Positions 25,364-42,103 of a DNA stretch of 64,000 nucleotides are shown here, in pieces. This DNA comes from Colwellia hornerae. GTDB lineage: Bacteria > Pseudomonadota > Gammaproteobacteria > Enterobacterales > Alteromonadaceae. Below the pieces are notes generated by a model. It made no database searches and was not told the DNA's origin. It saw only the letters and a list, made by a program, of their open reading frames with translations. The number at the start of each line of letters is the position of its first letter. Position 1 is the first letter of the stretch. Location of the stretch: assembly GCF_007954355.1 (NCBI RefSeq), contig NZ_VOLR01000011.1, forward strand, positions 32,620 through 96,619, written 5' to 3'. The translations under genes and the position numbers were made by a program.

Positions 25364-28363
25364 TTAGCTTTTAATGAACTGTTGTTGATATTGTTTTGGG
25401 GTGCAATTAAATGACTCTTTAAAACATCGACCAAAGTACGTTTGTGATGAAAAACCAACATCTAGGGCGATTCTGCCAATTTTAGAACCGTTTTGCAGCA
25501 GTATTTGTGCTTTCGCTAGGCGGAACTCTTTAATGAAATTATTAGGTGTTGTTCCCAAGGTTACTTTCATTTTTCGTTGCAGTTGACGCTCACTCATTGC
25601 CATATTACTGGCTAGCTCTTGAATACCTAAATCAGTTTCCAAGTACATTTTGGCGACAATAGTTTCTAACTTTTCTATAAACTTTTCATCAACGGATAAT
25701 ATTGCACTTTCGCTTGGGGTTAACTGCGACACTTTCTTTACGCTACTTTCTTTTTGTTGTTCTTTTTGATGATCCCTAAATTTATGTAAATAGTTTTGCT
25801 GCAACTGCTTACGATTTTCAATTAAATTTTCAATACGGATCAGTAATTCTTGTTGATTGAATGGCTTACTTAAATACTCATCCGCTTGCAAATTCAGGCC
25901 ATGCAGGCGGCTGTCTAGGTCTGAGCGCGCGGTCAGTAAAATAACAGGAATATGTGAGGTGAGTTCATTTCCTTTTAATTGTTTGAGCACTTCAAAACCG
26001 TCAATACCGGTCAGCATAATATCGCAGACGATAAGGTCAGGAATATATTCTTCAGCTAGAATTAGCCCCTGTTCACCACTAGTCGCCAATAAACAATGAT
26101 GTTGTTGTTCAACTACACGTTTAATATGGTTTTGCATATCAAGGTTATCTTCAATAACCAAAACGACATTTTGTAGGTGATTTTTAGCTTTAGTTTTATT
26201 ATTATTTTGTTCTAGCAAGAGTGAAGAAACTTCGCTTTCTGAGACACTCATCGGTACTTGGGCTTCAATCGCAACCGATTCTTTTGCAGGAATAGATAAA
26301 GAAAATTTACTGCCTTTATTATACTCACTGACTAAATTGATACGCCAGTTATGCGCTTTTACCAATTCATTAACTAGTGATAAACCAATACCAACACCAA
26401 AGACAGCATGATTTTTTTCATCATCGGCTCTTTGAAATCGTTCGAAAATCTTAACTTGTGATGCTTGATTAATACCAATGCCAGTATCGGTAATATCTAG
26501 AATAATATTATCTTGCTCGGCATAAGCGCAAACCTTGATACTGCCACCTGCAGGTGTATATTTAATCGCGTTAGCCAGTAAGTTGAAAATTATTTTTTCA
26601 AAACCTTGAGCGTCACACTCTAGCCAAAGATCATCAGAAATATCAGCGTCAAAGCTTAAATCATTTTGCTTAGCTAAGCGTGAAAATGAATCAATTGGCA
26701 TAGCCATTAGTTGGCTTAACCGATAAGTAGACAGCGAAAGCTTAGGGTTATCGGTCAGGCGCGAAAGCTCTAAAAGCTGTTCAACCATTCGCACTAACCT
26801 TAAACCATTGCGCTTAGCGGTGGTGAGCTCTAATCCTTCTTCTTTACTTTGAGCTTTTAGTAAGTACTGATCTAAAATGCCATTAATAATCGTTAACGGC
26901 GTTCTAAATTCATGAGAAATATTAGCGATAAATTTATCTTTTAAATCTAAAGTTTGTTTTTCAGCTAATTTTCGTGCGGTCAAATTAATAAAGGTAATAA
27001 CAATAAGCGGCTTTTCTTCGCGGTCTGCCCACTGTAATTCCGCCTGTACTGGAAATTCGGTGCCATCTGTTCTGCGCGCCATACACTCTACTGAAATACC
27101 AATATCTTTGCGTTGTAGTGCATAAACATTACTTTTAAAACCAAAAAAGTAATGCATGGTATCTTCAGATGAAAATAAGGTACTAACATTTTTGTCGGTT
27201 AACTCATGTTCTAAGCTCTGGAACATTTGCACGGCTGCAGGATTTGACGATAATATTTCACCGTCAATTGAAGTGGTTAAAATGGCATTACTTGATGCGC
27301 GAACAATGGCCTTATCTTCACTATTGAGGATAGAACTGATTAATTTATGATTCTTTTGTGTTAACGCTTTATTTTCTTTTTGCTGAGTAAAAACTTGTTG
27401 CTTAAAGTCCAAGGTGTGCTTTCTTTTATTGTAAGCAATTAGCACAACCAAAATAAAAGCAATAACACCCCAAATACCAATAACAAAAGACTGCCAGAAA
27501 GAATTGGTTATGTAGAACGTACCAAGTTCTAAACCAGCAACATGAATACTAAAAATAATACTCACCAGTAATAAAATGTAAAGTTCGGGATAGGTGTCTT
27601 TGGCGATAGGTTTAGCTGGGTTTTGTGTATTTAAAGAGGCACTAGCTGCAAAGATAAGCGCGCAATAAGGAATTAGCGCCACTAAACTTTTTATATAATC
27701 ATCGCTGTATAGTGCTTGACCTTGAATGAGAAAATAATAATTAACGTTAGCCATTAATAAGGCAAGTGAGCCAATAAATAGTGGCCAATAAATAGCGCGC
27801 CAAAACTTTTCTCGACAAAAAATAACACAGCTCATTAGTCTGATAAAAATAAGACCAGAAATGGTGATGTGAAATAATAATGACGGTAATAATCTGTGGT
27901 CTAATGCTTTTGAAAATTCTTCTGGCAATAAAACGAAATAACAAAAACAGGTTACGGTAAAAAATAGTGCCGGCATCCGACCAGCAATATATTTATTGAG
28001 AGGGGTTTCGCTGAGGTGTGGGTTGGTTTCTATGGCTAATAAGATAAAGAAGTAACTAAATAATGAGAAAAAATCTTGCAGTACCGGCGTGGTATTAATG
28101 TAGTCACCGGCAAAAATAATACCCGAAATAAGATCAACAATTATAGCGAGAGAGAAAAACTGCCAGAATAACTTTAATGAACGTGACTTGGTCTGTAGAT
28201 AGCTAAAAATAACAAAGAATACTGCAATAGCCTGCAACAAAATAGCGGGCAGCGATAACAAAAAAGAAGATGTAATATTCAAAGCGCTAGCTATCGTGGT
28301 ATAGGGTAATAGGGATAATATTATGGAGATAAATAAAAGGGTTAATTTATTAAAATATAGCAA
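25364..28363 (-). CDS. Hybrid sensor kinase: 7TM (7TMR-DISM-like) + PAS + HisKA/HATPase + receiver + AraC-type HTH
   Basis: About 8 TM helices at the N-terminus. H-box FIANISHEFRTPLT. N, G1 and G2 ATPase blocks (DTGIGI, GVGIGLSL). Receiver VLVIEDNLDM..D. The C-terminus GFSSQTYFGRCFKESFNCTPKQY is AraC-like. Confidence 0.9.
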   Translation of the reverse strand: MLYFNKLTLLFISIILSLLPYTTIASALNITSSFLLSLPAILLQAIAVFFVIFSYLQTKSRSLKLFWQFFSLAIIVDLISGIIFAGDYINTTPVLQDFFSLFSYFFILLAIETNPHLSETPLNKYIAGRMPALFFTVTCFCYFVLLPEEFSKALDHRLLPSLLFHITISGLIFIRLMSCVIFCREKFWRAIYWPLFIGSLALLMANVNYYFLIQGQALYSDDYIKSLVALIPYCALIFAASASLNTQNPAKPIAKDTYPELYILLLVSIIFSIHVAGLELGTFYITNSFWQSFVIGIWGVIAFILVVLIAYNKRKHTLDFKQQVFTQQKENKALTQKNHKLISSILNSEDKAIVRASSNAILTTSIDGEILSSNPAAVQMFQSLEHELTDKNVSTLFSSEDTMHYFFGFKSNVYALQRKDIGISVECMARRTDGTEFPVQAELQWADREEKPLIVITFINLTARKLAEKQTLDLKDKFIANISHEFRTPLTIINGILDQYLLKAQSKEEGLELTTAKRNGLRLVRMVEQLLELSRLTDNPKLSLSTYRLSQLMAMPIDSFSRLAKQNDLSFDADISDDLWLECDAQGFEKIIFNLLANAIKYTPAGGSIKVCAYAEQDNIILDITDTGIGINQASQVKIFERFQRADDEKNHAVFGVGIGLSLVNELVKAHNWRINLVSEYNKGSKFSLSIPAKESVAIEAQVPMSVSESEVSSLLLEQNNNKTKAKNHLQNVVLVIEDNLDMQNHIKRVVEQQHHCLLATSGEQGLILAEEYIPDLIVCDIMLTGIDGFEVLKQLKGNELTSHIPVILLTARSDLDSRLHGLNLQADEYLSKPFNQQELLIRIENLIENRKQLQQNYLHKFRDHQKEQQKESSVKKVSQLTPSESAILSVDEKFIEKLETIVAKMYLETDLGIQELASNMAMSERQLQRKMKVTLGTTPNNFIKEFRLAKAQILLQNGSKIGRIALDVGFSSQTYFGRCFKESFNCTPKQYQQQFIKS

Positions 28364-28483
28364 TGATGTCTTCCAATATTAAAGTGACGTTTATTATGTT
28401 GCCTAATCATGAGGCTTATTATTTTCTCCTTTAATTACTATAGTATACATTAATTTAACACCATATAAATGAATGAAAAATAT

Positions 28484-29014
28484 TCACTGGCTATCTATAA
28501 GGCTAAGTAAAGAAGCTAACTTTTCAATTTTTATATTCGACAATTGGCGATAATCAAAATAGGGACAGACCACTAAATTTTGAGCCTTATCAATAGCAAA
28601 CTCGTCATCTAACCAGATAAAATTAGCCGTTAGCTGGCCTGTTGCTAGCAAATGCTTGGCGTAGGTTTTTCCACAAATAATATGCAGAGTTTGCTTAGCG
28701 GTTGATAACAGAGGAGGAGAAAACAATAAAGCCGTTTGAGAATCTTGTTGCAGTAAAAAGCGCTCTCGATATTTTTGCCAAGTTGGTGCAAGGGTTGAAT
28801 AGGCGAATTGTGCTTTATCGAGTGCGTAAAGCAACTTTGCATAAACATTGAAAACTTTTCGCCAACCATTGCCGCAAGCTTGATTAACCATCTCTATTTC
28901 GCCCAAGGTTAGCGGCGATAGAGAAGATAATTGCTGATATTCAAGCATACTTGGTTTATTACCAATATAAACGGCAATGGTAAATTTTGAGCAACCTACA
29001 CCAATATTTTTCAC
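28484..29014 (-). CDS. Hypothetical protein (176 aa), third gene of a tight three-gene operon
   Basis: No recognisable motif. 22-bp gaps to its neighbours. Confidence 0.45.
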   Translation of the reverse strand: MKNIGVGCSKFTIAVYIGNKPSMLEYQQLSSLSPLTLGEIEMVNQACGNGWRKVFNVYAKLLYALDKAQFAYSTLAPTWQKYRERFLLQQDSQTALLFSPPLLSTAKQTLHIICGKTYAKHLLATGQLTANFIWLDDEFAIDKAQNLVVCPYFDYRQLSNIKIEKLASLLSLIDSQ

Positions 29015-29035
29015 GTGATATTACTGAACAACTGT

Positions 29036-29458
29036 CTATTCATTAGGTAAGGCATTATCTAAGGTTTTTAAAGAACGTAAAAATAAACCTAAGCCACCGA
29101 TGGCTAAAACAAGTATTACAATTAAATCAAAAGAACTCATGGTCTTAAAAGTAAACCTTATTGAAGATATTACCCCAAAGATTAATCCTGATATTGAGCC
29201 AATAGCTAACACCCAGCCTAAAATATTTTTACTGTTATAAAAAATAAGGCCGACACCAAACATGAAAGGGATCATTATCATGCCACTGGTTACATTATAG
29301 TTGCCGCCCATGGCGGAAAAACCATACAGGCGTATGCCCATGCCAAAACTAGAAGTCACTGTGATTGAATTTAGTAGCATATAAAAACCACCACACATCA
29401 TAATGATGCCAATAAAAAAGTGACTTAAGCCACCTGAAGTTCCACCTGCTCCTTTCAT
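29036..29458 (-). CDS. Hypothetical integral membrane protein (140 aa, about 4 TM, Gly-rich)
   Basis: Hydrophobic, Gly/Met-rich helices. Operonic spacing. Confidence 0.45.
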   Translation of the reverse strand: MKGAGGTSGGLSHFFIGIIMMCGGFYMLLNSITVTSSFGMGIRLYGFSAMGGNYNVTSGMIMIPFMFGVGLIFYNSKNILGWVLAIGSISGLIFGVISSIRFTFKTMSSFDLIVILVLAIGGLGLFLRSLKTLDNALPNE

Positions 29459-29479
29459 GGGTATTCCTTATGATCTTTG

Positions 29480-30028
29480 TTATTTTTCGGCTGAGTAGGG
29501 ATCTTCAGCAAGAAGATAAGCTCTTAAATCGGCTTTGTTTGGCTGCTGATATAGCCACTCTCTAAGGGCTTTAACTTTCGCATAATTTTCTTCACCAAAT
29601 TTATCTTGGTATATTTCTGCAAAGTTTTCTTTCGTACTATTAATACGAATGTTACGTTGCCAATGTGCGGTTAGTACCGTATTTAAGGAGCCAGCTAAAT
29701 TTTCTTTTTTGAGTAATTCCCATTCACCTTTGTCTAACCAAACACCACCGACATTTGCGCTGTAGTCGATACGATGATCTGTTGAGGCAGATAGTCGAAA
29801 TTTACGCATGATTGTACCTGTTACCGGGCATAACATTGCTTGTTTAGTTTCAACAACTTGACATTGAAGGTCGTTATCAAAAGAAAACTGCGGATTACGT
29901 TCCTTCCAAGCGACATAATCTTCAATTAAGATCCAATGACCACTACAATTTGAGCAAGTATGTGCTCTAAACAACCCTTCGATAAAACTGGGTGTTAACT
30001 CACCCTGCTTACAACTAGTACATTTCAT
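29480..30028 (-). CDS. Tandem zf-TFIIB-like zinc-ribbon protein (second ribbon degenerate)
   Basis: CTSCKQGEL...CSNCSGHWILIEDYVAWKE, then CPVTGTIM...VGGVWLDKGEWELL, which resembles the C-x2-C...GGvWLD.gEl zinc-ribbon family. The start was chosen at MKC (ATG at 30028) with an AGGGAG RBS 6 nt upstream. The ORF track extends it to 30079. Confidence 0.55.
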   Translation of the reverse strand: MKCTSCKQGELTPSFIEGLFRAHTCSNCSGHWILIEDYVAWKERNPQFSFDNDLQCQVVETKQAMLCPVTGTIMRKFRLSASTDHRIDYSANVGGVWLDKGEWELLKKENLAGSLNTVLTAHWQRNIRINSTKENFAEIYQDKFGEENYAKVKALREWLYQQPNKADLRAYLLAEDPYSAEK

Positions 30029-30299
30029 TATTATCTCCCTATTAAATGTTATCTTTGTAAATTTTACGTAAACCATCATATAATCATTGCTTGATATAAG
30101 TCACGAGTAAAATCAATTAAATCAGAATACTGTAGGCTTTTATTTTTATGATTTAATGTAAACAATATGCTAATTTGGTTTTTTGAAATTTTATAAAAAC
30201 TGTATTGTATTGACATATTATGTCACAGGTGTATGGTAAATATAAAGAATAAACACCATAATAATAGCGGGTGTTCGCTATGCGCTTTAAGGATAAACA

Positions 30300-30938
30300 A
30301 TGGAACAGCTGCTAGAAGTCGCTTCAAAATTTCCCACCGTTCTATATTCGACACTGCTAGGTGTCGTGGTTGTTTATTGGCTTATTGGCATGTTAGGGCT
30401 GGTCGATTTAGGTTTAGCTGGAGATGTAGACCTTGATGTAGAAGTCGATAGTGATGTTGATATTTCTGTCGGTGGCTTGACCGGTTTTATGCTGACCTTT
30501 GGAATAACTGGTGTGCCGTTTACCTTAGTTTTTAGCATTATTATCCTTATTTGCTGGTTAATCAGTTTTTACCTGCAATTCTATATTTTAGCTTGGTTAC
30601 CCGATGGTTGGTTATATTATCTGCTTGGCGCGGTTAGTAGCTTTATCGTATTTTTAATTTCTCTACCGTTAACCGCTATTGTTATTCGCCCCTTAAAAGG
30701 GATGTTTAAAAGTGTCGAAACCTCTAAAAGTAGCGAGTTGGTAGGAAAAAGTGCCACGATTGCTACAGGAACGGTTAGTGAAATTTTTGGTCAAGCTCGC
30801 ATATATAACAACGGCGCAGAAATCTTGCTTGATGTGCGCTGTGACCCAGAACACTGCTTAAAAAAGGGTGATAATGTGCTACTGATAGAATATTTAAAAG
30901 AAAAGCATGCTTACATTGTTGCGCCGTATGCTGACTGA
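30300..30938 (+). CDS. YqiJ/NfeD-like membrane protein with C-terminal OB-fold
   Basis: Multi-TM N-part with an acidic DVDLDVEVDSDVD loop. The C-terminal VGKSATIATGTVSE...GAEILLDVRCDPE...GDNVLLIEY is an NfeD-like OB fold. Immediately upstream of a flotillin, as in yqiJK. Confidence 0.7.
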   Translation: MEQLLEVASKFPTVLYSTLLGVVVVYWLIGMLGLVDLGLAGDVDLDVEVDSDVDISVGGLTGFMLTFGITGVPFTLVFSIIILICWLISFYLQFYILAWLPDGWLYYLLGAVSSFIVFLISLPLTAIVIRPLKGMFKSVETSKSSELVGKSATIATGTVSEIFGQARIYNNGAEILLDVRCDPEHCLKKGDNVLLIEYLKEKHAYIVAPYAD

Positions 30939-31009
30939 ATAACAAATAAATTATAATATACTTGGTCACACAGTAGTGACCATCGAATTTACATAAAAGG
31001 AAAAAAAAC

Positions 31010-32992
31010 ATGGTAATGGAACCACTTTATCTCGCGATTGGCATTGGCGTACTTTTAGTCTTTTCACTGTTAATCATGATGGCTAAGTTTTATCACAAAG
31101 TAGAGCAGGGCCAAGCATTAATCATCAACAAATTAGGCGCTGAACCAGAAATAAGTACCAATGGCGGCATGGTTATTCCGGTTATCCATAAAAAAGAAAT
31201 TATGGATATTTCTACCAAGCGCATGATGCTAGAACGAAAAGGGCGATCTGGGCTTATTTGTCAGGATAACATTCGTGCTGACATTACTATTACCTTTTAT
31301 ATTCGGGTTAATGAAACCAAAGAAGACATTCTACGTGTGGCAAAACAAGTTGGCTGTGAGCGCTCTTCTTTTCCTGAAACCTTGCAAGAACTTTTTGAAG
31401 CTAAATTCTCTGAAGCCCTTAAAACCGTAGGCAAACAATTAAATTTCACTGATCTTTTTACCCAGCGTGATATTTTTCGTGACAAAATTAAAGCGGTAAT
31501 TGGCCAAGATTTATCAGGTTATGTACTCGAAGATGTCGCCATTGATTTTCTTGAACAAACGTCGATAAACGATTTAGATCCTAATAACATTATGGATGCT
31601 GAAGGTATTAGGCGCATCACCGAGTTAACCGCTCAACAAAGTGTTGAAACCAATGACTTAAAACGCCAAGAAGAAATACGCATTAAACGACAAGATATTG
31701 ATGCTAAAGAAAAAGGCTTAGAACTTGATCGCCAATTAGCCGATGCCCAAGCTAAACAGACGCGAGAAATTTCTACCGTAGAAGCTCGAGAAGAAGCCGA
31801 AACGGCTAAAATAGTGCAAGAAGAATTCTGTAAGTCTGAACAGGCAAGAATAGCGACTGAACAGACCGTCGCTGTAGCCGAAGAAAATAAACAACGTGAA
31901 GCTGATATCGCACAACAAAATCGTTTTAGAGCTGTGGCTATCGAAGAAGAAAAAGTGAAACGTGCCCGTCAAGTTGAAGAAATAGATCGTGAAAAAGAAG
32001 TTGAAACACTACGAATCGACAAAGAAAAAGCCCTAGAAATAGAACGTAAAAATATTGCTGAAGTGCAGCGTGAACGCATCATGGTTGAAAAAGGCGTCGC
32101 TGAAGAAGAAGAGCTTATCAAAGATTTACGTGTGGTTTCAGAAGCTAACCGCCAAAAAGATGAATTGGTTATTAAAGCTAAAGGTGAAGCTGAGCAAGCA
32201 TTGGTTAAAGATATTGAATCAGCTAAAGCGCAAGAACAAGCGGCTGAGCATATCGCAAGAAAAATGCAAACCATTGCCGACGCTGAATTAAAAGCCGCGA
32301 GTAAACAGGCAGAGTCGAAGAAAATATTGGCTGAGGGTAACCAAGCAGAAGCGGCATCACAAGGGCTTGCTGAAGCTCAAATTACCTTAGCGCAAGCTGA
32401 TGCACACGAAAGACAAGGTGAGGCTGAAGCTAAAACACTCGAACTTAAGTTGACCGCTGAGGCTAAAGGTATACAAGAAAAAGCCTTAGCAGAAGCGACT
32501 GGTTTACGTGAAAAACAAGAGGTACTTAACGCAATGTCTGAACAAGCCAGAGAGTTTGAAACCTTTGGTTTACGTTTAAATCAAGAGCGTGAATTAACCC
32601 TAGCGAAACTAGAAAATAGTGTTGCGTTAGCTGAGAAGCAAGCGGGTGTATTAGCAACGGCATTAAGTGAAGCCAATATTAATATTATGGGCGGTGATGG
32701 CGAATTCTTGCGTCAGTTTATGAGCTCTATCACGGTTGGTAAGTCTATCGACGGCTTAGTCAATGAAAGTGAAACAGTAAAAACCTTGTTTAAAGATCAC
32801 TTAAATGGCGACCGCAATATTATGGACGATTTGGGTGGAGTGCTAGCAGGTGCTGCTCAAACGAGTGAAACCATGAAAAATTTCAACATGTCTAAGTTAT
32901 TGTCAACATTAAATAATGCCGATGACACCCAAAAAGGCGCATTGGCTAGTTTGTTAAACTTAGCGAACAAAAACTCGTCAGACGAAAAATAG
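31010..32992 (+). CDS. Flotillin-family SPFH (band-7) protein, YqiK-like
   Basis: N-terminal TM, then an SPFH domain, then a long E/A/K/Q-rich coiled coil (EA-repeat region) and a flotillin-type C-terminus. Confidence 0.9.
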   Translation: MVMEPLYLAIGIGVLLVFSLLIMMAKFYHKVEQGQALIINKLGAEPEISTNGGMVIPVIHKKEIMDISTKRMMLERKGRSGLICQDNIRADITITFYIRVNETKEDILRVAKQVGCERSSFPETLQELFEAKFSEALKTVGKQLNFTDLFTQRDIFRDKIKAVIGQDLSGYVLEDVAIDFLEQTSINDLDPNNIMDAEGIRRITELTAQQSVETNDLKRQEEIRIKRQDIDAKEKGLELDRQLADAQAKQTREISTVEAREEAETAKIVQEEFCKSEQARIATEQTVAVAEENKQREADIAQQNRFRAVAIEEEKVKRARQVEEIDREKEVETLRIDKEKALEIERKNIAEVQRERIMVEKGVAEEEELIKDLRVVSEANRQKDELVIKAKGEAEQALVKDIESAKAQEQAAEHIARKMQTIADAELKAASKQAESKKILAEGNQAEAASQGLAEAQITLAQADAHERQGEAEAKTLELKLTAEAKGIQEKALAEATGLREKQEVLNAMSEQAREFETFGLRLNQERELTLAKLENSVALAEKQAGVLATALSEANINIMGGDGEFLRQFMSSITVGKSIDGLVNESETVKTLFKDHLNGDRNIMDDLGGVLAGAAQTSETMKNFNMSKLLSTLNNADDTQKGALASLLNLANKNSSDEK

Positions 32993-33065
32993 TCATCAAG
33001 TATCAATCAGGCCATGCACAGTGATCCGTTCAAGGGTATCTGTGCATTAGCTCATGGAGTCTCAT

Positions 33066-36000
33066 ATGTCAGATAAGGATAGCGTCACTAATCAGGCTGT
33101 TGCAGAAGGAGGTTCATATGAACTTATTCAGCGCAGGTTGTCAGCCTTAGGCAGTGATCTTAATAGCCAAATTAAGCAGCTAAACGACGAGCGTATTGCC
33201 ACGTTTGGCTCCACCGATATGAAAGTTGATGCTCGTGTGCGGGTTAGAACTGAGCATAACTGTGTTGCTAGAGATATTGCCGCCATCGGAGATACCTTAC
33301 TTTTTGGCTATAACGTCTTTCTCGGTTTAAAGCGCAATATTACCGTCTCAGACGTTTTCAGTTTACACCAAATTAAAGGTGATAAAGATGATATTGAGAT
33401 TATTGATCTTCCGGTAAAGGATAGTTTTCTTGACGATGCTGAATTTGTCCGTGATTTTGATGAGTTATACACCTATTACAAAAAAACATTTCTAGCTCAT
33501 GTTTATCGACAAGGCAGTAAAGTATTTGCCATCTTTCGTATTGGTGAACGTCTTGACGATATTAGAGTATTTCGTTGGGGTATCGACGCTGATCAGCAAG
33601 TTAGCTATATCGATAATCGTGGTGAAAGAGATATAAAGCAGCCAGAAAATTTTGACTTTGAATGGCATAAAGTATCTCGAGAGCAACAAGAGCAAGGTAA
33701 ACACCCACATTATAATTTATATGACATCTTGTTTGTTGAAGCTATTGGTGGCTCAATTACCTTAAAAGTTGAGAATAATACCACCGCAGGTCAAGGCATA
33801 TATTCCGAGCCAGTCGAAGATGAACATCAGTCTATAGATGACGCCGAAATTCATTACGCCAGAGTTGGCGAGCTTATTTTATTGAAAATAAAGCCGTATC
33901 GTGAAACTGAGACCCGCCATTTAATTTTTAATGCTAAAACTCAGCAAGTGATCAGGCAAGATGCCATTGCCCATGCCTGTATTCAATTACCTGAAGACCA
34001 CGGTATTATTTTCCCCGGTGGTTACTATTTACAAAATGGCGAACACAAAAGTTTTGAAGATAATGCCGAAGATTTACAGTTACACCGCGTGATGAAATCA
34101 CCAAACGGTGAAGACTTTCTCTATATATTTTATGAACCAAACGAAGGGCAGTACGCTTTGTTCGGTTATAATTTGATCACGAGAACATTACAAAATCCCA
34201 TTTATGGTCATGGTCAAAGTTTATACAACAATGGTAGAGCGGTGGTTTTTAATGCCGAGTCTGAGCCATCACGTGTTCATGCTATGCAAATATGGCAAAC
34301 GCCTTTTTGTAGTGAAGAATTTGCCAGTAATCAACCAGTTGATAATAGCTTCTTTGGTAAAATAGGTAACCCTGAACTGGTTCGTGGTATTTCTGACTTA
34401 TTCAGTGTCGCTAAATTGATCTCGGTGCAAACACCAAGCGCGCAGCATTTTAATGATTTAGTGAAAGAGTCTAAGCAAATTTTTGACAAATATCATTGGC
34501 TTAATGATAAAGAGCTGAGTTTGCTGCATGATCTTATCAAGCAAATCGCGATCACCTCTGAATTGGTTATAGATGAATTTGAAAAAGTCACCAGCATTAA
34601 AGAAAACTCTGATCGGGCCTTAATTCAAGCAAAAGAAAAGCTAGCCAAGCTAGTAACACAAGTTCAAATTTCGGGTTTCGAGCATGCCTCACAATTCGTT
34701 GACTGCTTATCGGTTTTAGCCCAATTTAAAGGTGAATTGATCTCCCATAAAGATTTACGTTATATCGATGTTGACGCAATTAATGCCATGGAAACTCAGT
34801 TAGATACGTTAACGAAAGCACTTAGCCAAGCAACCGCTGATTTTCTCCAACAAGACGATGCTTTAACGCCTTATCAAAAGACCATAGTTGCATTAGAAAA
34901 AGCGATAGAAAAAAGTGAATCGGTTAGCTCATTAAAGCCGATTCGTACGGAAATTGAAGAACTTGTGCAAGGATTAGAATTGCTTAATCGCACTATGTTG
35001 TCACTAAAAATTGAAGATAGCCGACAAAGAACACGTATTCTAGAAGATATTTCCACTGTCTTTAGTCAAATAAACCGCGTTAAAGCTAATGCTGATTTGG
35101 CGGCTAAAAGTGTCGGTAGTGAAGAGGCGCGAGCAGAATTTGGTGCTCGATTTAAACTGTTAAGCCAAAGTGTCACCAGTGCTTTAAATGCCAGTGATTC
35201 ACCGCCAGCATGTGATGAGCAACTTTCTCAAATTTTAATTCAGTTAGAAGATTTAGAAAGCCAGTTTAGTGATTATGATGAATTTTATAATGAAATTATC
35301 ACTAAAAGGGATGAAATATACGATAACTTCGAACAACATAAGCAGCAGCTGATGGATGCACAGCAGCGTCGTTGTTTGAATTTGATGACGGCAGCCGAGC
35401 GTATTATCGAAGGTGTGATCAGACGGAGTCAATCGTTTAGTCTGCAAGACAAATTAAACAGCTATTTTGCTGGCGATCCTATGGTTGCCAAGCTTAGGCA
35501 ACTAATTGAACAGCTTAGAGAGCTTGATGACAATGTTAGAGCCGATGACATTGATGCGCAATTAAAAAATGCTAAAGAGCAAGGCATAAGAGCACTGAGA
35601 GATAAAACCGATATTTACTCTGCTGACGGTAGTTTAGTTAAAATAGGCGACCACCAATTTTCGGTGAATCGTCAAAAATTAGAACTGACCTTATTACCTC
35701 GTGATGGTGCCATGGTCTTGCATATCAGTGGTAGTGAATACTTTGAAACGCTACCCACTGAATTATTTGTTGGTACTGAATACCTTTGGCAACAAGCGCT
35801 GGTCTCAGAATCTGACAAGGTCTACCGAGGTGAGTATTTAGCGGCGACATTATTATTTGAGGCTGAATTTGCTGGCCAAGCGCAACTTGAACATTTAAAA
35901 GCGGCGGTAAAAAACAATGAATTAGGCAAGGTGGTCAGAAAAGCTGCTGAGCCACGTTATCAAGAAGGTTATGATAAGGGCGTACATGATGCCGATGCGG

Positions 36001-38285
36001 CATTAATTCTAACGCAATTACTTGCTTTAAGAGAATCTATTGGCTTGTTAGCTTATCCCGTCGCCGAAAGAAGACTAGCAGTACTTTTTTTCACCACAGA
36101 ATTAGCAGATAACGGCCGAAAAGATTTATTACAACGCAGTCATAATCTCCATATCATGGAAGAAACCTTTGGCGATAATCAATTACGTCATCAGCTTATT
36201 AAAGAACTGGCTACATTATTAGATAGTTATCTTGAAAGTCAGCCTTGGCTGAAATGTGACACGTTACTGTCAGCAACCTACCTATTGCAAGAGTTAGCTT
36301 TAGCCGAGCAGAAATTTGTTATTAAAGAAAGTAGCGTTGAGTTAGCCAACCAACTGAAGAGTCAGCTAAAGCATAAGAGCTTAGAAAAACAACTCAGTGG
36401 CGCATTATCGGGTTGTTTGACACTAGAGCAAAAATATCAACTTTACTGGGCGTGGTTGCAGGCTTTTTCTTCGCATCAGAGCATGAACATCCATCAAGAT
36501 ATTATTGCTGAAGCCGCAATCTTTATGCTGATGCAAGAGCAATGTGAATTCTATACTTCATTGGCTGACACCGAAGGTGTTGTTGATGGTTTATTGGGGC
36601 AGCACGGACAAATATCGGAGAGAAAAATTGCGATAAATTATCAAGAATTTATCACTCGACTACGCCAATTTAAAAATGAGCATGAACCGGCATTCAAAGG
36701 CTTTCATATTCAAAAGCAAAAGGTATTAGCGGCACAACGCAAACGCTTACGCTTAGAAGAGTTTAAACCAAGAGCGCTGTCTTCGTTTGTGCGTAATAAA
36801 TTAATTAATGATGTTTACTTCCCGATTATCGGTATTAATTTAGCTAAACAAATTGGTGCAGCTGGTAATAATAAACGTTCTGATTTAATGGGATTATTAC
36901 TGCTTATTTCTCCACCAGGTTATGGTAAAACAACGCTTATTGAATATGTTGCCAGCAAGCTAGGTATGACCTTTGTTAAAATAAACTGTCCTTCAATAGG
37001 ACACGATCAGTTGTCGCTAGATCCCGCTCAGGCAAATAACTCAACAGCAAAAAATGAAGTTGAAAAGATTAACTTAGCCTTTGAAATGGGTAACAATGTC
37101 ATGTTGTACCTTGATGATATTCAGCATACCAATCCTGAGTTCTTACAAAAGTTTATTTCCTTATGTGATGGCTCAAGAAAAGTGGATGGTGTCTGGAATG
37201 GCGAAAGTAAAACCTATGATATGCGCGGCAAAAAATTTGCAGTTGTCATGGCTGGTAACCCTTATACCGAATCAGGAGAAGCATTCAGTATTCCAGATAT
37301 GTTGGCTAACCGAGCCGATATTTATAATTTAGGTGATACCTTAAGTGGTCGAGAAGAAGAGTTCTCGTTAAGCTTTATTGAAAATAGCTTAACCAGTAAC
37401 CGCTACATCGCGCCACTAGCGACCCGAAATATGGACGATCTCTATAATCTGGTTAAAATTGCCGATGGTCAACAAGTTGCCACAACTGAGCTAAAACATA
37501 ATTATTCGCAAGCCGAAATCAATGAAATAGTTGCGGTTATTCAACGTATTCGTAAAATTCAAGCGACGGTATTAAAGGCTAATCAACAGTACATCGCCTC
37601 TGCCGCACAAGACGATAAATATCGCACTGAACCTTCGTTCAAGTTACAAGGAAGCTATCGCAATATGAATAAGATGGCGGAAAAAGTAGTGCCGGTTATG
37701 ACCGAAGAGGAAGTTGAACAGCTTATTGCCGATCATTATCGCGGCGAAGCGCAAACACTGACCATAGGCGCTGAAGAAAACTTACTTAAATTAGCGGAAC
37801 TGCGCAACAATCAAACCAGTGAAGAAAAAGTGCGTTGGCAACAAATTAAGGCGGATTTTGTTCGTCATCAAAACTTGGGCGACAGTGATAACCCCATTGC
37901 CGCGGTTGCGAGCCAAATATCGTTATTGCAAAAAGGCCTCAATCAAATAGGAGAGGCCTTGTTACAGCCTAAATCTGCAGCGTTAGCTACCTTAAATGAA
38001 ACGCTTGCAAGTCTTAAACTACAAGTGAATATTGAAAAGCCAGATGATTCGGCGTTAGCAGAAACTTTAGCGCTATTCAGCGAAAATATGGCGTCTTTTT
38101 TAACTCCACTGGTTAACACGTTACAAAGTAATAAGAACGTCGATTTGGCGATGATTGATACCTTAAAAACATTGAACCTGACGACTGAGAAATCAGTAAA
38201 AAGTTCTGAAAGCCATATTCAAAAAATTAGTCGAGAATTAGCATCAGGAAAACAACGTAATATTGATGTGCCGTCTGCTGACTAA
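33066..38285 (+). CDS. Giant (about 1740 aa) uncharacterised protein. The N-terminal ~1200 aa have no recognisable domain and include long helical/coiled-coil stretches. The C-terminus is a MoxR/dynein-like (AAA_5-type) AAA+ ATPase module
   Basis: Walker A LLLISPPGYGKTTLIEYVA. Walker B VMLYLDDIQHTNPEFLQKF (DD, not DE). Sensor-1/Arg region VVMAGNPYTESGEAFSIPDMLANRADIYNL. Start preferred at the ATG at 33066 (GGAG 6 nt upstream, MSDKDS..). The ORF-track ATG at 33054 lacks an RBS. 61 bp after the flotillin gene. Confidence 0.75.
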   Translation: MSDKDSVTNQAVAEGGSYELIQRRLSALGSDLNSQIKQLNDERIATFGSTDMKVDARVRVRTEHNCVARDIAAIGDTLLFGYNVFLGLKRNITVSDVFSLHQIKGDKDDIEIIDLPVKDSFLDDAEFVRDFDELYTYYKKTFLAHVYRQGSKVFAIFRIGERLDDIRVFRWGIDADQQVSYIDNRGERDIKQPENFDFEWHKVSREQQEQGKHPHYNLYDILFVEAIGGSITLKVENNTTAGQGIYSEPVEDEHQSIDDAEIHYARVGELILLKIKPYRETETRHLIFNAKTQQVIRQDAIAHACIQLPEDHGIIFPGGYYLQNGEHKSFEDNAEDLQLHRVMKSPNGEDFLYIFYEPNEGQYALFGYNLITRTLQNPIYGHGQSLYNNGRAVVFNAESEPSRVHAMQIWQTPFCSEEFASNQPVDNSFFGKIGNPELVRGISDLFSVAKLISVQTPSAQHFNDLVKESKQIFDKYHWLNDKELSLLHDLIKQIAITSELVIDEFEKVTSIKENSDRALIQAKEKLAKLVTQVQISGFEHASQFVDCLSVLAQFKGELISHKDLRYIDVDAINAMETQLDTLTKALSQATADFLQQDDALTPYQKTIVALEKAIEKSESVSSLKPIRTEIEELVQGLELLNRTMLSLKIEDSRQRTRILEDISTVFSQINRVKANADLAAKSVGSEEARAEFGARFKLLSQSVTSALNASDSPPACDEQLSQILIQLEDLESQFSDYDEFYNEIITKRDEIYDNFEQHKQQLMDAQQRRCLNLMTAAERIIEGVIRRSQSFSLQDKLNSYFAGDPMVAKLRQLIEQLRELDDNVRADDIDAQLKNAKEQGIRALRDKTDIYSADGSLVKIGDHQFSVNRQKLELTLLPRDGAMVLHISGSEYFETLPTELFVGTEYLWQQALVSESDKVYRGEYLAATLLFEAEFAGQAQLEHLKAAVKNNELGKVVRKAAEPRYQEGYDKGVHDADAALILTQLLALRESIGLLAYPVAERRLAVLFFTTELADNGRKDLLQRSHNLHIMEETFGDNQLRHQLIKELATLLDSYLESQPWLKCDTLLSATYLLQELALAEQKFVIKESSVELANQLKSQLKHKSLEKQLSGALSGCLTLEQKYQLYWAWLQAFSSHQSMNIHQDIIAEAAIFMLMQEQCEFYTSLADTEGVVDGLLGQHGQISERKIAINYQEFITRLRQFKNEHEPAFKGFHIQKQKVLAAQRKRLRLEEFKPRALSSFVRNKLINDVYFPIIGINLAKQIGAAGNNKRSDLMGLLLLISPPGYGKTTLIEYVASKLGMTFVKINCPSIGHDQLSLDPAQANNSTAKNEVEKINLAFEMGNNVMLYLDDIQHTNPEFLQKFISLCDGSRKVDGVWNGESKTYDMRGKKFAVVMAGNPYTESGEAFSIPDMLANRADIYNLGDTLSGREEEFSLSFIENSLTSNRYIAPLATRNMDDLYNLVKIADGQQVATTELKHNYSQAEINEIVAVIQRIRKIQATVLKANQQYIASAAQDDKYRTEPSFKLQGSYRNMNKMAEKVVPVMTEEEVEQLIADHYRGEAQTLTIGAEENLLKLAELRNNQTSEEKVRWQQIKADFVRHQNLGDSDNPIAAVASQISLLQKGLNQIGEALLQPKSAALATLNETLASLKLQVNIEKPDDSALAETLALFSENMASFLTPLVNTLQSNKNVDLAMIDTLKTLNLTTEKSVKSSESHIQKISRELASGKQRNIDVPSAD

Positions 38286-38467
38286 CATCGGCTATTGGGG
38301 TCAAAAATATTTCCCCCTTATCAAGAGCGCATCGGCTTATACTGCTCGGTAGAAGTAACATGACTATAGAACCAAAGCCGTGCTTTAAAAAATATGGTGA
38401 CGTCTCTTTTAAAAAGTGAGTAAAACGTCAATAATTAACCTGTAAAATAAAATGATGGAGCGAAGTT

Positions 38468-39280
38468 ATGAATGAAAAAATTGCAGCACTTAAATCAGAC
38501 TTAGCGCTCCTTAAAGCGCAATTTACTAAAAAAATTACCGATGTCGAAATTCGTTTAAAAAATATGATTGAACAAGAAATTTTAGAGAATTCAGTTAAAA
38601 ATAAAAAACAAGCGGCTTCACCCGAACATACACAAACTTTGTCTAATGGCGAGTGTGTTATTTTACTTCATGGACTAGCGCGCTCTGCTAGCTCAATGAA
38701 GGTTATTGAAAAGCGTCTTAGCGAAGAAGGCTACTTTGTTATTAACATTAACTATCCATCGAGGGAGTATTCGATAGAAGAGTTAGCCGAAAAAGTTATT
38801 TCGAGCGCCTTGTTAACCTGTGAAGACCGTCCTGTTAATTTTGTTACCCATTCAATGGGTGGCATTTTAGTGCGTCAGTATTTAAGTGTGCATAAAATAC
38901 CTCATTTAAATAAAGTGGTTATGCTTGGCCCACCCAATAAGGGTAGTGAAGTGGTCGACAAGCTGCGCAATGCGCCTGGCTTTAGTTTTATCAATGGCGA
39001 TGCAGGTATGCAGCTAGGTACCGGTGAATTAAGCGTGCCAAGTAATCTCGGTAATGCGAATTTTGATTTGGGTGTTATTGCCGGTAATCAAAGTATTAAT
39101 TGGATATTATCAACACTTATTCCAGATAAAGATGATGGTAAAGTTTCTGTCGCCAGTACCAAACTTGACGGTATGAATGATCACATTGAAATGGAAACAA
39201 CTCATCCTTTTATGATGAGAAATGACAAAGTTATTGAACAAGTTATTCATTACTTAAAATCAGGTAGTTTTCAAAAATAA
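38468..39280 (+). CDS. Alpha/beta-hydrolase (putative serine esterase/lipase, GHSMGG nucleophile elbow) with N-terminal coiled coil
   Basis: ILLHGLARSASSM ... VTHSMGGILVRQY. The N-terminal ~40 aa are a heptad-like coiled coil. Confidence 0.65.
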   Translation: MNEKIAALKSDLALLKAQFTKKITDVEIRLKNMIEQEILENSVKNKKQAASPEHTQTLSNGECVILLHGLARSASSMKVIEKRLSEEGYFVININYPSREYSIEELAEKVISSALLTCEDRPVNFVTHSMGGILVRQYLSVHKIPHLNKVVMLGPPNKGSEVVDKLRNAPGFSFINGDAGMQLGTGELSVPSNLGNANFDLGVIAGNQSINWILSTLIPDKDDGKVSVASTKLDGMNDHIEMETTHPFMMRNDKVIEQVIHYLKSGSFQK

Positions 39281-39311
39281 TTCTGCTAGAAAGCTTGCCT
39301 TTACTAACGAC

Positions 39312-39349
39312 CTGTATATACTGACAGTAACCACTGTGTAAATTTACAG
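39312..39349 (+). promoter_or_regulatory. Two adjacent LexA (SOS) boxes in the lexA promoter
   Basis: CTGTATATACTGACAG (39312-39327) and CTGTGTAAATTTACAG (39334-39349). Both fit CTGT-N8-ACAG, immediately upstream of the lexA ATG, as for E. coli lexA. Confidence 0.85.
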
Positions 39350-39357
39350 GCTACCCT

Positions 39358-39993
39358 ATGCTAAATGAAATCAGCGAATTACGCCCACTAACGAACCGAC
39401 AACAACAAGTTTTTGATCTGATCAAAGACAAAATAAGCGATACGGGTATGCCACCAACGCGTGCTGAAATAGCAAAGTTTTTTGGCTTTAAATCAGCAAA
39501 TGCCGCAGAGGAACATTTAAAAGCTTTGGCTAAAAAAGGCTATATAGAAATGTTACCGGGCACTTCTCGTGGCATTCGTTTAACTGAAAAGTTAATGGAA
39601 GAAGCCGGTTTACCTCTAATCGGTAGAGTTGCTGCCGGTGAGCCTATTTTAGCTGCAGAGCATGTTGAAGACCATTATAAAGTTGATGGTAATTTGTTTC
39701 ACCCAGCTGCTGATTACTTACTGAGGGTTAATGGCGAAAGCATGAAAAACATCGGTATACTTGATGGTGACTTGTTAGCCGTTCATCAAACTACAGATGT
39801 ACAAAATGGCCAGGTAATTGTGGCTCGTGTCGAAGAAAATGTTACGGTTAAACGTTATAAACGTGAAGGTAATATCGTTTATTTACATGCTGAAAATGAT
39901 GATTTCTCTCCTATTAAAGTCGATTTATCCGCTCAAGAATTTAATATTGAAGGGCTAGCTGTTGGCGTTATTCGCTCGGCAGACTGGATGTAA
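39358..39993 (+). CDS. lexA: LexA repressor
   Basis: Collinear with E. coli LexA: [21 protein letters not shown]...[14 protein letters not shown], the AG cleavage site in VAAGEP, and the catalytic S/K (GESM...VKRYK). Confidence 0.95.
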
Positions 39994-40076
39994 TTAAGTG
40001 AATCTTCTCGACAAAATTACTGTGAACTAAGCTCTCCTACCCCGAAAACTTGTTAATAATTAAGTTGACCTACTCC

Positions 40077-40120
40077 GCAAACTTTAGTGCACAAAGCTGA
40101 CTAAAGTTTGCTTTTCTCTG
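40077..40120 (+). terminator. Rho-independent terminator downstream of lexA
   Basis: 11-bp perfect stem gcaaactttag...ctaaagtttgc followed by ttttctctgcttt. Confidence 0.7.
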
Positions 40121-40558
40121 CTTTCGTATACTTTTCGTGCAAACCTTTCTCTTTACTAAGAATAATTCTCATTCTAAACCCCATTAAGACGACTTTATCT
40201 TTTTTTGTTTAAAAAACAACCAGTGCCTTTTGTTGTTATCGTCGCATTTATACACAGTTGTTTATTTTTAACACTAGGGCTACAGCCCTTTGTTATTAGA
40301 CCTTTGTCTGTATTAGAGTTGATACTCTATTGTTTTTGTTGGTTTTTATTTTGAAATAGCTCTATTTTTAAATTGACCCAGATCAACTTTTAAGTAATTC
40401 TAGTTTGGAAAATGTACAAATATAAATATAAGGCGATGTTGTCGATGCTTACTGGTCGATAACCAAATTGCTAAGAAAATAATAAAAATCCGTACTAAAG
40501 GATGCATTTTGTCCTTGGTATCAAGTTTTAAACTTTTATAGGGTGAAGGAGATGTCGT

Positions 40559-42103
40559 GTGAAAAGACGTAACCTAGGTTGGCTGTCGTTGGGGAGTGTT
40601 CTTTCCAGTTCAGCTTGGGCAGATATGCAATTAAATCTGACCAAGGGTGTAACAGAAGTAAGTAGAGATGTTTACGATTTACATATGCTCGCAATGTATA
40701 TATGTGTAGCAATAGGTGTGGTCGTATTTGGCGCTATGTTTTGGTCAATGGTTTTCCATCGAAAATCCAAAGGGGCTAAATCAGCAGATTTTCATGAAAG
40801 TACAAAAGTAGAAATTCTCTGGACAGCAATTCCTATTGTCATTCTTATCGCTATGGCTGTACCAGCAACAAAAACACTGATCGAAATGGAAAATAACGAC
40901 GACTCTGACGTTACCATTCAAGTTACTGGCTCTCAGTGGAAATGGCATTATAAATATTTTGATCAAGATATTGAGTTTTATTCAGTACTGTCAACGCCTC
41001 GTGAACAATATGAAAATCAAGATGGTACGACCGCGACTAAAGGTGAGAATTATTTACTTGAAGTTGATAAACATCTTGTCATTCCAACTAATAAAAAAGT
41101 GCGTTTTTTAATCACCTCGGATGATGTTATTCATGCTTGGTGGGTACCTGCTTTTGCTGTTAAGCAAGATGCTAATCCAGGGTTCATTAATGAAGCTTGG
41201 ACTAAGGTCGATAAACCGGGTATTTACCGAGGCCAGTGTGCTGAACTTTGTGGTAAAGATCATGGTTTTATGCCGATTGTTGTCGAAGTAAAATCTGAAG
41301 CTGACTATGCAATATGGCTAGAAGAGCAACATCAAATTAATGCGCAAGCCGCTGCCGCTGAAAAAGCATCTCTTAACGCTTCAGTGTCGATGGAAGAATT
41401 AATGACCTTGGGTGAAACCACCTATGTTGCCTATTGTGCTGCATGTCATCAAGTTTCTGGTGCTGGCTTACCTCCTGCATTTCCTGCACTCAAAGGTAGT
41501 ACAGTCGCAACGGGCGACATCGCCGCGCATATTGATATTGTACTCAATGGTAAAGCAGGCACAGGTATGCAAGCTTATGGCAAGCAGTTAAGTATGAAAC
41601 AAATTGCTGCTGTTGTGACATACGAGCGTAATGCTTGGGGTAACAATACCGGCGATGCAGTACAAGCTGCCGATGTTAAAGATGTTGCTAAGGGTTCAGA
41701 AAGTGATACGGCGGCACCTGCAAAAGTGGCAGAAGTCGTCGCCATAGTTGCCGAAGAAGCTCCAGTAGAAGATTTAACTAAAGTGTATAGCGAAGATGAG
41801 TTGATGGTAATGGGTGAGCAAGTTTATATGAAAGCTTGTGCTGCATGTCATCAAGTTTCTGGTGCTGGTTTACCTCCGGCATTTCCTGCACTGAAAGGTA
41901 GTGCAATTGCACTGGGTGACATTGCTGTGCATATAGATATGGTTGTTAATGGCAGCAAGAAAAATCCTGCCATGGCTGCTTTTGGTAGCCAGTTAACTAA
42001 AACCGAAATAGCGGCTGTTGTTACTTATGAGCGTAATGCTTGGGGTAATAACACCGGTGATTTAGTACAACCTGCAGCTGTTGATGCTGCTAGTGCGAAG
42101 TAG
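40559..42103 (+). CDS. coxB: Cytochrome c oxidase subunit II fused to two c-type cytochrome domains
   Basis: GTG start after a GAAGGAG RBS. Signal peptide plus two TM helices. CuA motif HAWWVPAF...CAELCG. Two CAACHQVSG heme-c sites. Confidence 0.9.
   Translation: MKRRNLGWLSLGSVLSSSAWADMQLNLTKGVTEVSRDVYDLHMLAMYICVAIGVVVFGAMFWSMVFHRKSKGAKSADFHESTKVEILWTAIPIVILIAMAVPATKTLIEMENNDDSDVTIQVTGSQWKWHYKYFDQDIEFYSVLSTPREQYENQDGTTATKGENYLLEVDKHLVIPTNKKVRFLITSDDVIHAWWVPAFAVKQDANPGFINEAWTKVDKPGIYRGQCAELCGKDHGFMPIVVEVKSEADYAIWLEEQHQINAQAAAAEKASLNASVSMEELMTLGETTYVAYCAACHQVSGAGLPPAFPALKGSTVATGDIAAHIDIVLNGKAGTGMQAYGKQLSMKQIAAVVTYERNAWGNNTGDAVQAADVKDVAKGSESDTAAPAKVAEVVAIVAEEAPVEDLTKVYSEDELMVMGEQVYMKACAACHQVSGAGLPPAFPALKGSAIALGDIAVHIDMVVNGSKKNPAMAAFGSQLTKTEIAAVVTYERNAWGNNTGDLVQPAAVDAASAK

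Follow-up and report, generated by a model that had tools for sequence, protein, structure and literature searches.

Described relatives of the Colwellia locus

The bac gene cluster of Pseudomonas aeruginosa was first defined as PA3732-PA3729 (PMC2587700) and was later extended to bacABCDEF, PA14_16140-16200, in P. aeruginosa PA14 (PMC10948618). Here we describe a three-gene locus of Colwellia hornerae that corresponds to bacC-bacD-bacE and encodes, in this order, a YqiJ/NfeD-like membrane protein of 212 amino acids (aa), a divergent flotillin of 660 aa, and a giant ATPase of 1743 aa; it lies in a 64-kb stretch of contig NZ_VOLR01000011.1 (positions 32,620 to 96,619), which is referred to as the window. 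In PA14, the only organism tested, reverse transcription-PCR (RT-PCR) gave products across every bacABCDEF junction, including that between the flotillin and giant ATPase genes, all bac products were up 6- to 13-fold when bacA was mutated, and the cluster was proposed to have a sigma-54 site (PMC10948618). The PspA protein of the cluster, PA3731, is upregulated by osmotic shock, and biofilm formation, swarming, and virulence are all impaired in the PA3731 mutant (PMC2587700). The flotillin PaFlo3 is PA14_16180 (PMC13086221), and PA3728, listed as an "ATPase" (PMC8190622), would correspond to BacE, judging from gene order. The same operon, including an "abbreviated" form devoid of PspA, was described by Ravi et al. 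(2024, mSystems), who proposed chaperone-like membrane dynamics as its function and reported a PLD protein in some Proteobacteria (PMC11237479).

The original prediction, made from the nucleotide sequence of the window, held that no characterized system links a flotillin to a giant AAA+ protein. However, this linkage was published in 2024 (PMC11237479), so the window shows no new kind of system. From the abbreviated operons of Ravi et al., which consist of band-7/flotillin, YqiJ/YuaF, and AAA+ genes, the Colwellia locus differs in nothing essential. Genes for PspA, DUF2170, rhomboid, and PLD proteins are absent from the whole 64-kb window, and the lack of the DUF2170/PspA pair identifies the window form as the abbreviated one. 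With the bac operon the locus shares gene order and strand, and the YqiJ-like, flotillin, and giant proteins are ~37%, 49%, and 47% identical, respectively, to their counterparts in P. paraeruginosa (locus L043), where the order is DUF2170, PspA, the 213-aa protein, the 688-aa protein, the DUF3686/AAA+ protein (1746 aa), and PLD. In contrast to the bac operon, the window has no bacA (DUF2170/CesT-like), bacB (PspA), or bacF (PLD) and contains a divergent Zn-ribbon gene instead; a sigma-70-like promoter overlapping a palindrome is found here, whereas a sigma-54 site was proposed there. The first two genes also resemble the E. coli yqiJ-yqiK and B. subtilis yuaF-floT pairs, in which a membrane NfeD/YqiJ-type protein is likewise followed by a flotillin, and for E. 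coli the profile homology is significant. However, the giant ATPase is absent after yqiK in E. coli K-12, and, unlike the members of NfeD-flotillin pairs, the window proteins are too divergent to be recognized individually by Pfam Band_7, Flot, or NfeD. What is new here is the quantified invariant flotillin-giant core, the addition of rhomboid and Zn-ribbon proteins as two further recurrent partners, the finding that the "DNA repair" name of the giant protein is unsupported, and a conserved palindromic promoter element.

The three genes are closely spaced. The originally predicted open reading frames (ORFs) and distances were recovered exactly: consecutive plus-strand genes from the yqiJ-like gene through lexA are separated by 71, 61, 182, and 77 bp. 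A consensus scan of both internal gaps (71 and 61 bp) identified no plus-strand terminator-like or promoter-like site, which agrees with the predicted lack of terminators. Along with the conserved promoter upstream of the locus, these features are indirect evidence of co-transcription in Colwellia. A 7-bp inverted repeat, TGGTCAC-ACAGTA-GTGACCA, is present between the yqiJ-like and flotillin genes; it is not followed by a T-run on the plus strand and might serve in RNA stability or processing. Downstream of the giant gene no terminator was detected, and the 182-bp spacer folds no better than its shuffles (z = -0.61), so read-through into the downstream hydrolase gene is neither shown nor excluded. 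The true start of the giant gene is probably the ATG at 33066, which has GGAG 7 nucleotides upstream and would yield a protein of 1739 aa, the length of the Colwellia psychrerythraea orthologues. The best matches to the giant protein were 97% (a metagenome) and 84% (C. psychrerythraea) identical.

Conservation of the core and architecture of its proteins

The alignment of the giant protein was scanned against one genome per species, and at least 572 loci matched. The locus counts given below refer to the best 80 of these at least 572 loci, which span Colwellia, Pseudoalteromonas, Pseudomonas, Cellvibrionales, methanotrophs, Lysobacter, Xenorhabdus/Pragia, Myxococcota, and Longimicrobium. In each of the 77 loci that extend far enough, the flotillin gene immediately precedes the giant gene on the same strand (the three loci without a flotillin start within 300 bp of the giant match), and the YqiJ-like gene adjoins the flotillin gene in 73/73 loci with enough DNA. 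In five distant loci (Hymenobacter of the Bacteroidota, two Streptomyces of the Actinomycetota, Deinococcus of the Deinococcota, and Vibrio campbellii), the flotillin is followed by the giant in all five and the YqiJ-like gene is at least partly kept in four. Gene order and strand are thus conserved across at least six phyla, and the adjacency of the flotillin and giant genes is far beyond chance. The pairwise identities of the flotillin and of the giant protein are correlated (r = 0.95 over 69 loci, to which shared phylogeny contributes), which agrees with joint inheritance. The three genes are inherited together, and the invariant core consists of the flotillin and giant genes rather than of PspA. 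The proposed functional tie between the giant ATPase and the YqiJ/flotillin pair is therefore borne out by conserved order and strand and by the RT-PCR results for PA14.

When searched alone, neither the 212-aa nor the 660-aa protein gave any significant match in Pfam, NCBIfam, or PDB sequence searches, and the profile of the flotillin orthologues likewise retrieved nothing from PDB sequences. The identity of the two proteins was settled by hhalign comparisons with E. coli YqiJ and YqiK only, in agreement with the original assignment. The family profile of the 660-aa protein (25 orthologues) aligned with YqiK with a probability of 99.9% (E = 1.4e-33; 406 columns), and that of the 212-aa protein aligned with YqiJ with a probability of 93.9% (E = 1.6e-7; 141 columns). 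Pfam domains were detected in a few orthologues: Band_7 in 4/25 flotillins and Flot in one of them, and YqiJ_N in 3/22 YqiJ-like proteins, with YqiJ_OB at an E value of 0.047. In Streptomyces, the orthologues of the 660-aa protein carry the annotation flotillin family protein, and in Hymenobacter, that of the YqiJ-like protein is annotated as DUF1449. Besides one N-terminal transmembrane segment, the 660-aa protein has an SPFH domain, a coiled coil rich in E and A, and a C-terminal region of the flotillin type. Its single hydrophobic segment comprises residues 1 to 29, and the K/H-rich sequence that follows suggests that the bulk of the protein faces the cytoplasm. The YqiJ-like protein has three to four hydrophobic segments. 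Unlike these two partners, the giant protein has no transmembrane segment in its hydropathy profile.

The giant protein is named "DNA repair ATPase" at NCBI and "MoxR-like ATPase" at JGI, and it has more than 4,236 homologues. Residues 1 to 1200 matched 1,291 clusters at 50% identity, 406 of them at E values of 1e-30 or below, with full-length alignments down to 28% identity. This region had originally been described as free of recognizable motifs; it carries, in fact, the Pfam domains DUF3686 (E = 2e-192) and DUF7902 (E = 1.3e-22). In an AlphaFold model of residues 5 to 1204 (mean predicted local distance difference test score [pLDDT], 76), an N-terminal helix is followed by ~27 strands, long helices that take up some 400 residues, a small beta domain, and a well-modelled helical domain (pLDDT about 88). 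The ~27 strands, located between model residues 53 and 411 and mostly of pLDDT 70 to 85, fit a beta-propeller, and the modelled helices of the coiled-coil region reach about 50 residues. Foldseek matched the propeller to WD40, clathrin-terminal-domain, and nucleoporin propellers, and the propeller plus helices to nucleoporins, IFT-A subunits, clathrin, and Vps11, at E values of about 1e-6 but TM-scores of only ~0.1. The apparent likeness of the N-terminal part to eukaryotic membrane-coat proteins is weak and may serve as a lead only.

An AAA_5-type ATPase domain had been predicted at the C terminus. Pfam matches to AAA (E = 6e-9), AAA_5 (E = 1.4e-6, above its cut-off), and AAA_22 were indeed obtained within residues 1280 to 1405, and the AAA_5 alignment is nearly end to end (2 to 125 of 139). 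However, the module is not at the very C terminus, as a variable tail of ~120 to 150 residues, modelled at low confidence, follows it. The AAA+ block shows 79% mean column identity over 25 orthologues from several phyla, in all of which Walker A SPPGYGKTT (residues 1286 to 1294), Walker B LDD (1353 to 1355), sensor-1 N1402, and the arginine R1420 (NRAD) are invariant. Walker B has Asp where Glu is usual (DD, not DE). The C-terminal model has a pLDDT of 61 (70 to 84 in the AAA core) and contains a beta-hairpin-like insert before sensor-1; its Foldseek matches were MCM, NorQ/CbbQ, RuvB, Skd3/ClpB, and ClpA/X hexamers, with probabilities of 0.99 to 1.00.

The AAA+ module had also been called MoxR/dynein-like. 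A MoxR/AAA_5-like label is plausible: the AAA_5 match, the hairpin-like insert, and the presence of NorQ and CbbQ among the top fold matches recall the MoxR family (RavA, NorQ, and CbbQ). However, the affiliation is not established, since hhalign against E. coli RavA gave a probability of only 12%, over the stretch from Walker A to Walker B, and MCM, RuvB, and Clp proteins score about equally; in addition, a VWA partner is absent and Walker B is DD. The matches of the giant-orthologue profile to the PDB were limited to the P-loop regions of classical AAA proteins, and the hhalign similarity to FtsH was also confined to the P-loop. Pfam detected no protease domain in the giant protein and no MIT or Vps4_C match, and with the classical AAA similarity restricted to the P-loop, no Vps4 hallmark was found.

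Facultative partners, promoter, and flanking genes

Partners of the core were counted by a tblastn census of the 80 loci, with Pfam checks. A DUF2170 (YjfI, CesT-like) gene and a PspA/IM30 gene occupy the head of the operon in 45 to 46 of the 80 loci. A rhomboid gene, mostly immediately 3' of the giant gene, is present in 30/80 loci, a downstream PLD (HKD) gene in 23/80, and a Zn-ribbon gene, mostly downstream and on the same strand, in 20/80. The rhomboid gene starts about 0 to 460 bp after the giant gene (L016, L019, L020, L022, L024-L029, and others) and in several loci overlaps its stop codon. No mention of the rhomboid partner was found in the literature examined, including Ravi et al. 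(PMC11237479). This partner recalls the mitochondrial SPFH-rhomboid-AAA+ hubs. The Zn-ribbon protein of the window (Zn_ribbon_TFIIB, E = 1.2e-11) is probably a facultative member of the system, because its homologues occur in those 20 loci mostly just 3' of the giant gene; its longest ORF (to 30079) extends beyond the start that homologues support. On Hymenobacter plasmid NZ_CP010056.1 (L082, 3574 to 4359), a gene for a LexA-family (S24-type) regulator is divergent from a Tir-PspA-DUF1449-flotillin-giant operon, and its product may act there as the local repressor.

The predicted promoter TTGACA-16-TATGGT (10/12 consensus matches) lies in the 271-bp spacer that precedes the YqiJ-like gene; its second hexamer ends 63 bp before the ATG of that gene, and its -35 box is overlapped by the palindrome listed in Table 1. 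In an alignment of five Colwellia-clade loci, the palindrome and both hexamers stand out as an invariant stretch, whereas the intergenic DNA around them has diverged. The palindrome is present in one copy in the window and, with at most one mismatch, in 16 related loci besides it, once or twice per 25-kb locus; the bearers come from several groups of marine gammaproteobacteria and belong to Colwellia, Psychrobium, Pseudoalteromonas, Aliikangiella, Marinicella, and Zooshikella. TGACATA-N-TATGTCA was located at positions 7158 (L001), 7155 (L003), 7176 (L004), 7011 (L005), 7080 (L006), 5416 (L007), 5437 (L012), 5326 (L014), 5629/5659 (L054), 5117/5135 (L055), and 5294 (L068). Wherever its position relative to the operon was determined (L005, L007, L010, L054, L055, L068, and the Colwellia clade), it precedes the first operon gene, which is DUF2170 or PspA in full operons and YqiJ-like in abbreviated ones. 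Being common to abbreviated and PspA-type operons, the palindrome ties the two together through a shared putative regulator. We found no description of it in the literature examined. A 106-aa protein (cluster 11) was considered as the regulator and rejected, since it co-occurs only partly with the palindrome and is absent from Colwellia.

Table 1. Coordinates of the operon, its domains and promoter, and the surrounding features, counted from the first nucleotide of the window
Feature	Position	Strand	Description
YqiJ/NfeD-like inner-membrane protein, 212 aa	30300-30938	+	BacC orthologue; C-terminal OB-like domain
Divergent flotillin-family (SPFH) protein, 660 aa	31010-32992	+	BacD/PaFlo3 orthologue
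Giant soluble ATPase, 1743 aa	33054-38285	+	BacE/PA14_16190 orthologue
DUF3686 domain of giant	33156-34496	+	Residues 35-481; predicted beta-propeller
DUF7902 of giant	34857-35099	+	Residues 602-682, within long helical/coiled-coil region (~440-850)
AAA+ ATPase module of giant	36741-37913	+	About residues 1230-1620
Predicted sigma-70-like promoter	30210-30237	+	Consensus scan
Perfect palindrome TGACATA-T-TATGTCA	30211-30225	+	Putative operator; overlaps -35 box
Inverted repeat	30963-30982	+	Between yqiJ-like and flotillin genes
Alpha/beta hydrolase, 270 aa	38468-39280	+	Downstream of giant
SOS boxes CTGT-N8-ACAG	39312-39327, 39334-39349	+	Directly upstream of lexA
lexA	39358-39993	+	3' of hydrolase
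Zn-ribbon protein, 182 aa from ATG 30028	29480-30028	-	Divergent from operon; Pfam Zn_ribbon_TFIIB
140-aa protein	29036-29458	-	About 4 hydrophobic segments; no Pfam match
DUF6942 protein	28484-29014	-	Upstream of module; operon link not found
Hybrid PAS-histidine kinase/receiver/AraC-helix-turn-helix protein, 999 aa	25364-28363	-	Upstream of module; operon link not found

The alpha/beta hydrolase does lie 182 bp downstream of the giant gene, as originally noted, and has a coiled-coil N-terminal extension of ~56 residues. As a fourth member of the system it was rejected: both it and lexA adjoin the operon only in the closest relative, L002, so the esterase is not a conserved neighbour. Homologues of its catalytic part (about 60% identity) were found 3.7 to 7 kb downstream of the giant gene in the Cellvibrionales loci L016 and L023. 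A homologue of the 140-aa protein adjoins the operon in the Colwellia-clade loci L001, L003, and L004 and is located 6 kb downstream in L006. This protein could be a companion specific to the lineage or could simply be syntenic. The cox operon comes after lexA. An Rfam scan of positions 28000 to 41000 gave no match. The original prediction had viewed the whole block as a possible inserted accessory cassette. Its G+C content is unremarkable, however, and flanking mobility genes are absent, although the flanks of the operon do differ among Colwellia relatives.

Proposed function and alternatives

On balance we favor the view that the region is the Colwellia copy of the known BacC-BacD-BacE module and that it acts in PspA-allied envelope stress or in membrane maintenance or remodelling. 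In the mechanism that we propose, the flotillin and YqiJ-like proteins would form an SPFH scaffold at the inner membrane, on its cytoplasmic side. The soluble giant protein would dock on this scaffold by way of its beta-propeller and its long helical part and assemble an AAA+ ring. ATP hydrolysis would then remodel the scaffold or a client held there, for which the leading candidate would be the ESCRT-III-type polymer of PspA, whose gene stands in cis in most relatives and is presumably located elsewhere in the genome here. The result would be a response to envelope stress or one that maintains the membrane. A membrane-microdomain-anchored ATPase machine for membrane remodelling, envelope stress, or phage defence had been suggested originally, and the first two of these functions coincide with the published inference.

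Several observations weigh against this reading. Deletion of PaFlo3 in PA14 reduces biofilm by only ~20% and leaves the other measured traits unchanged (PMC13086221). With no PspA gene in the 64-kb window, the link to PspA is indirect here. The contact between the giant protein and the flotillin is suggested by gene order only, the hydrolysis rate is uncertain because Walker B is DD rather than DE, and the C-terminal model is of low quality (pLDDT, 61). In addition, the AAA+ module of the giant ATPase is not visibly Vps4-like, so a Vps4-like role could be put forward by analogy only. Such a role can nevertheless be formulated. According to a 2025 review, a Vps4-like ATPase appears to be absent in bacteria (PMC7619361), which makes the giant protein a candidate for a nonhomologous substitute. 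That it is the missing ATP-driven remodeller of bacterial PspA/ESCRT-III, a functional counterpart of Vps4 on a flotillin/YqiJ platform, is a tentative idea that we consider rather unlikely.

A membrane-protein quality-control or extraction hub is a rival explanation: the flotillin would concentrate clients, the giant would unfold or extract them, and the rhomboid, where present, would cleave them, with PspA as an accessory and not a substrate. At the superfamily level, SPFH-family scaffolds with AAA+ machines at the membrane are well known from HflK/C-FtsH, prohibitin-m-AAA, and SLP2-PARL-YME1L, and HflK/C-FtsH, the mitochondrial SLP2-PARL-YME1L complex, and erlin/p97 in endoplasmic reticulum-associated degradation are parallels of such a hub. 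The SLP2 hub includes a rhomboid, as do the 30 relatives here in which this gene mostly stands directly downstream of the giant, and it is this frequent partner that permits the quality-control reading. By analogy, the giant could be the motor of an SPFH-rhomboid-AAA+ hub that extracts membrane proteins as SLP2-PARL-YME1L does. The invariance of the flotillin-giant pair, and not of PspA, and the unfoldases and disaggregases among the fold matches (Skd3/ClpB, ClpA, and ClpX) point the same way. However, the AAA+ partners in HflK/C-FtsH, prohibitin-m-AAA, and SLP2-PARL-YME1L are membrane-anchored proteases of the classical clade, whereas the giant protein is soluble, carries a propeller and a helical region, and has no protease domain detectable by Pfam; the comparison is an analogy, with homology limited to the AAA+ and SPFH folds. 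The window also has no rhomboid gene. Staphylococcus aureus FloA/NfeD has been reported to stabilize unfolded proteins, as cited in PMC13086221, and even so we regard the hub as a doubtful explanation of the module as a whole.

Defence against phages, the remaining function suggested originally, would require the flotillin/ATPase complex to sense infection and PLD or rhomboid effectors to kill or arrest the cell. The patchy distribution of the operon suggests horizontal transfer, for example, within Pseudomonas (PMC13086221), the giant is a large nucleoside triphosphatase with a propeller, PLD-family genes are linked in 23/80 loci, and PspA systems respond to phage secretins. However, the only PADLOC match among the four proteins was a marginal one between the P-loop of the giant and mad8 (E = 0.01; 13.4 bits), no phage record was matched, and the 13 of 72,556 plasmid records that matched are mostly megaplasmids, chromids, or mislabelled chromosomes. 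The AAA+ module is 65% to 82% identical across phyla, an unusually slow evolution for a defence gene, and the neighbours (histidine kinase, DUF6942, lexA, and the cox operon) do not form a defence island. The window version also has no candidate effector. A role in defence is very unlikely. Even less credible is a DNA-repair ATPase coupled to the SOS response through the neighbouring lexA, to which Pfam (which describes DUF3686 as an "ATPase involved in DNA repair"), the NCBI name, lexA at 1 kb downstream, recJ two genes downstream in P. paraeruginosa, and the LexA-family regulator divergent from the Hymenobacter operon might point. DUF3686 or PF12458 was not found mentioned in the literature searched, so that no experimental basis of the "DNA repair" name could be traced. 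The partners that always accompany the giant are membrane proteins, neither lexA nor recJ is conserved as a neighbour, and intergenic SOS boxes near the module are confined to the two that directly precede lexA, as is usual for its autoregulation; none is found upstream of the operon. One more match, at 31828, falls within the flotillin ORF and is probably due to chance, and SOS regulation of the operon was accordingly rejected. Taken together, the PADLOC and phage negatives and the lack of an upstream SOS box leave the ideas of phage defence, of DNA repair, and of an inserted cassette unsupported.

The module is widespread and strongly conserved, with relatives in at least 572 of the species-representative genomes scanned. 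The conserved palindromic element could serve to find the regulator of the operon. The giant ATPase is an obvious candidate for the disassembly or regulation of bacterial PspA/ESCRT-III polymers and flotillin assemblies.

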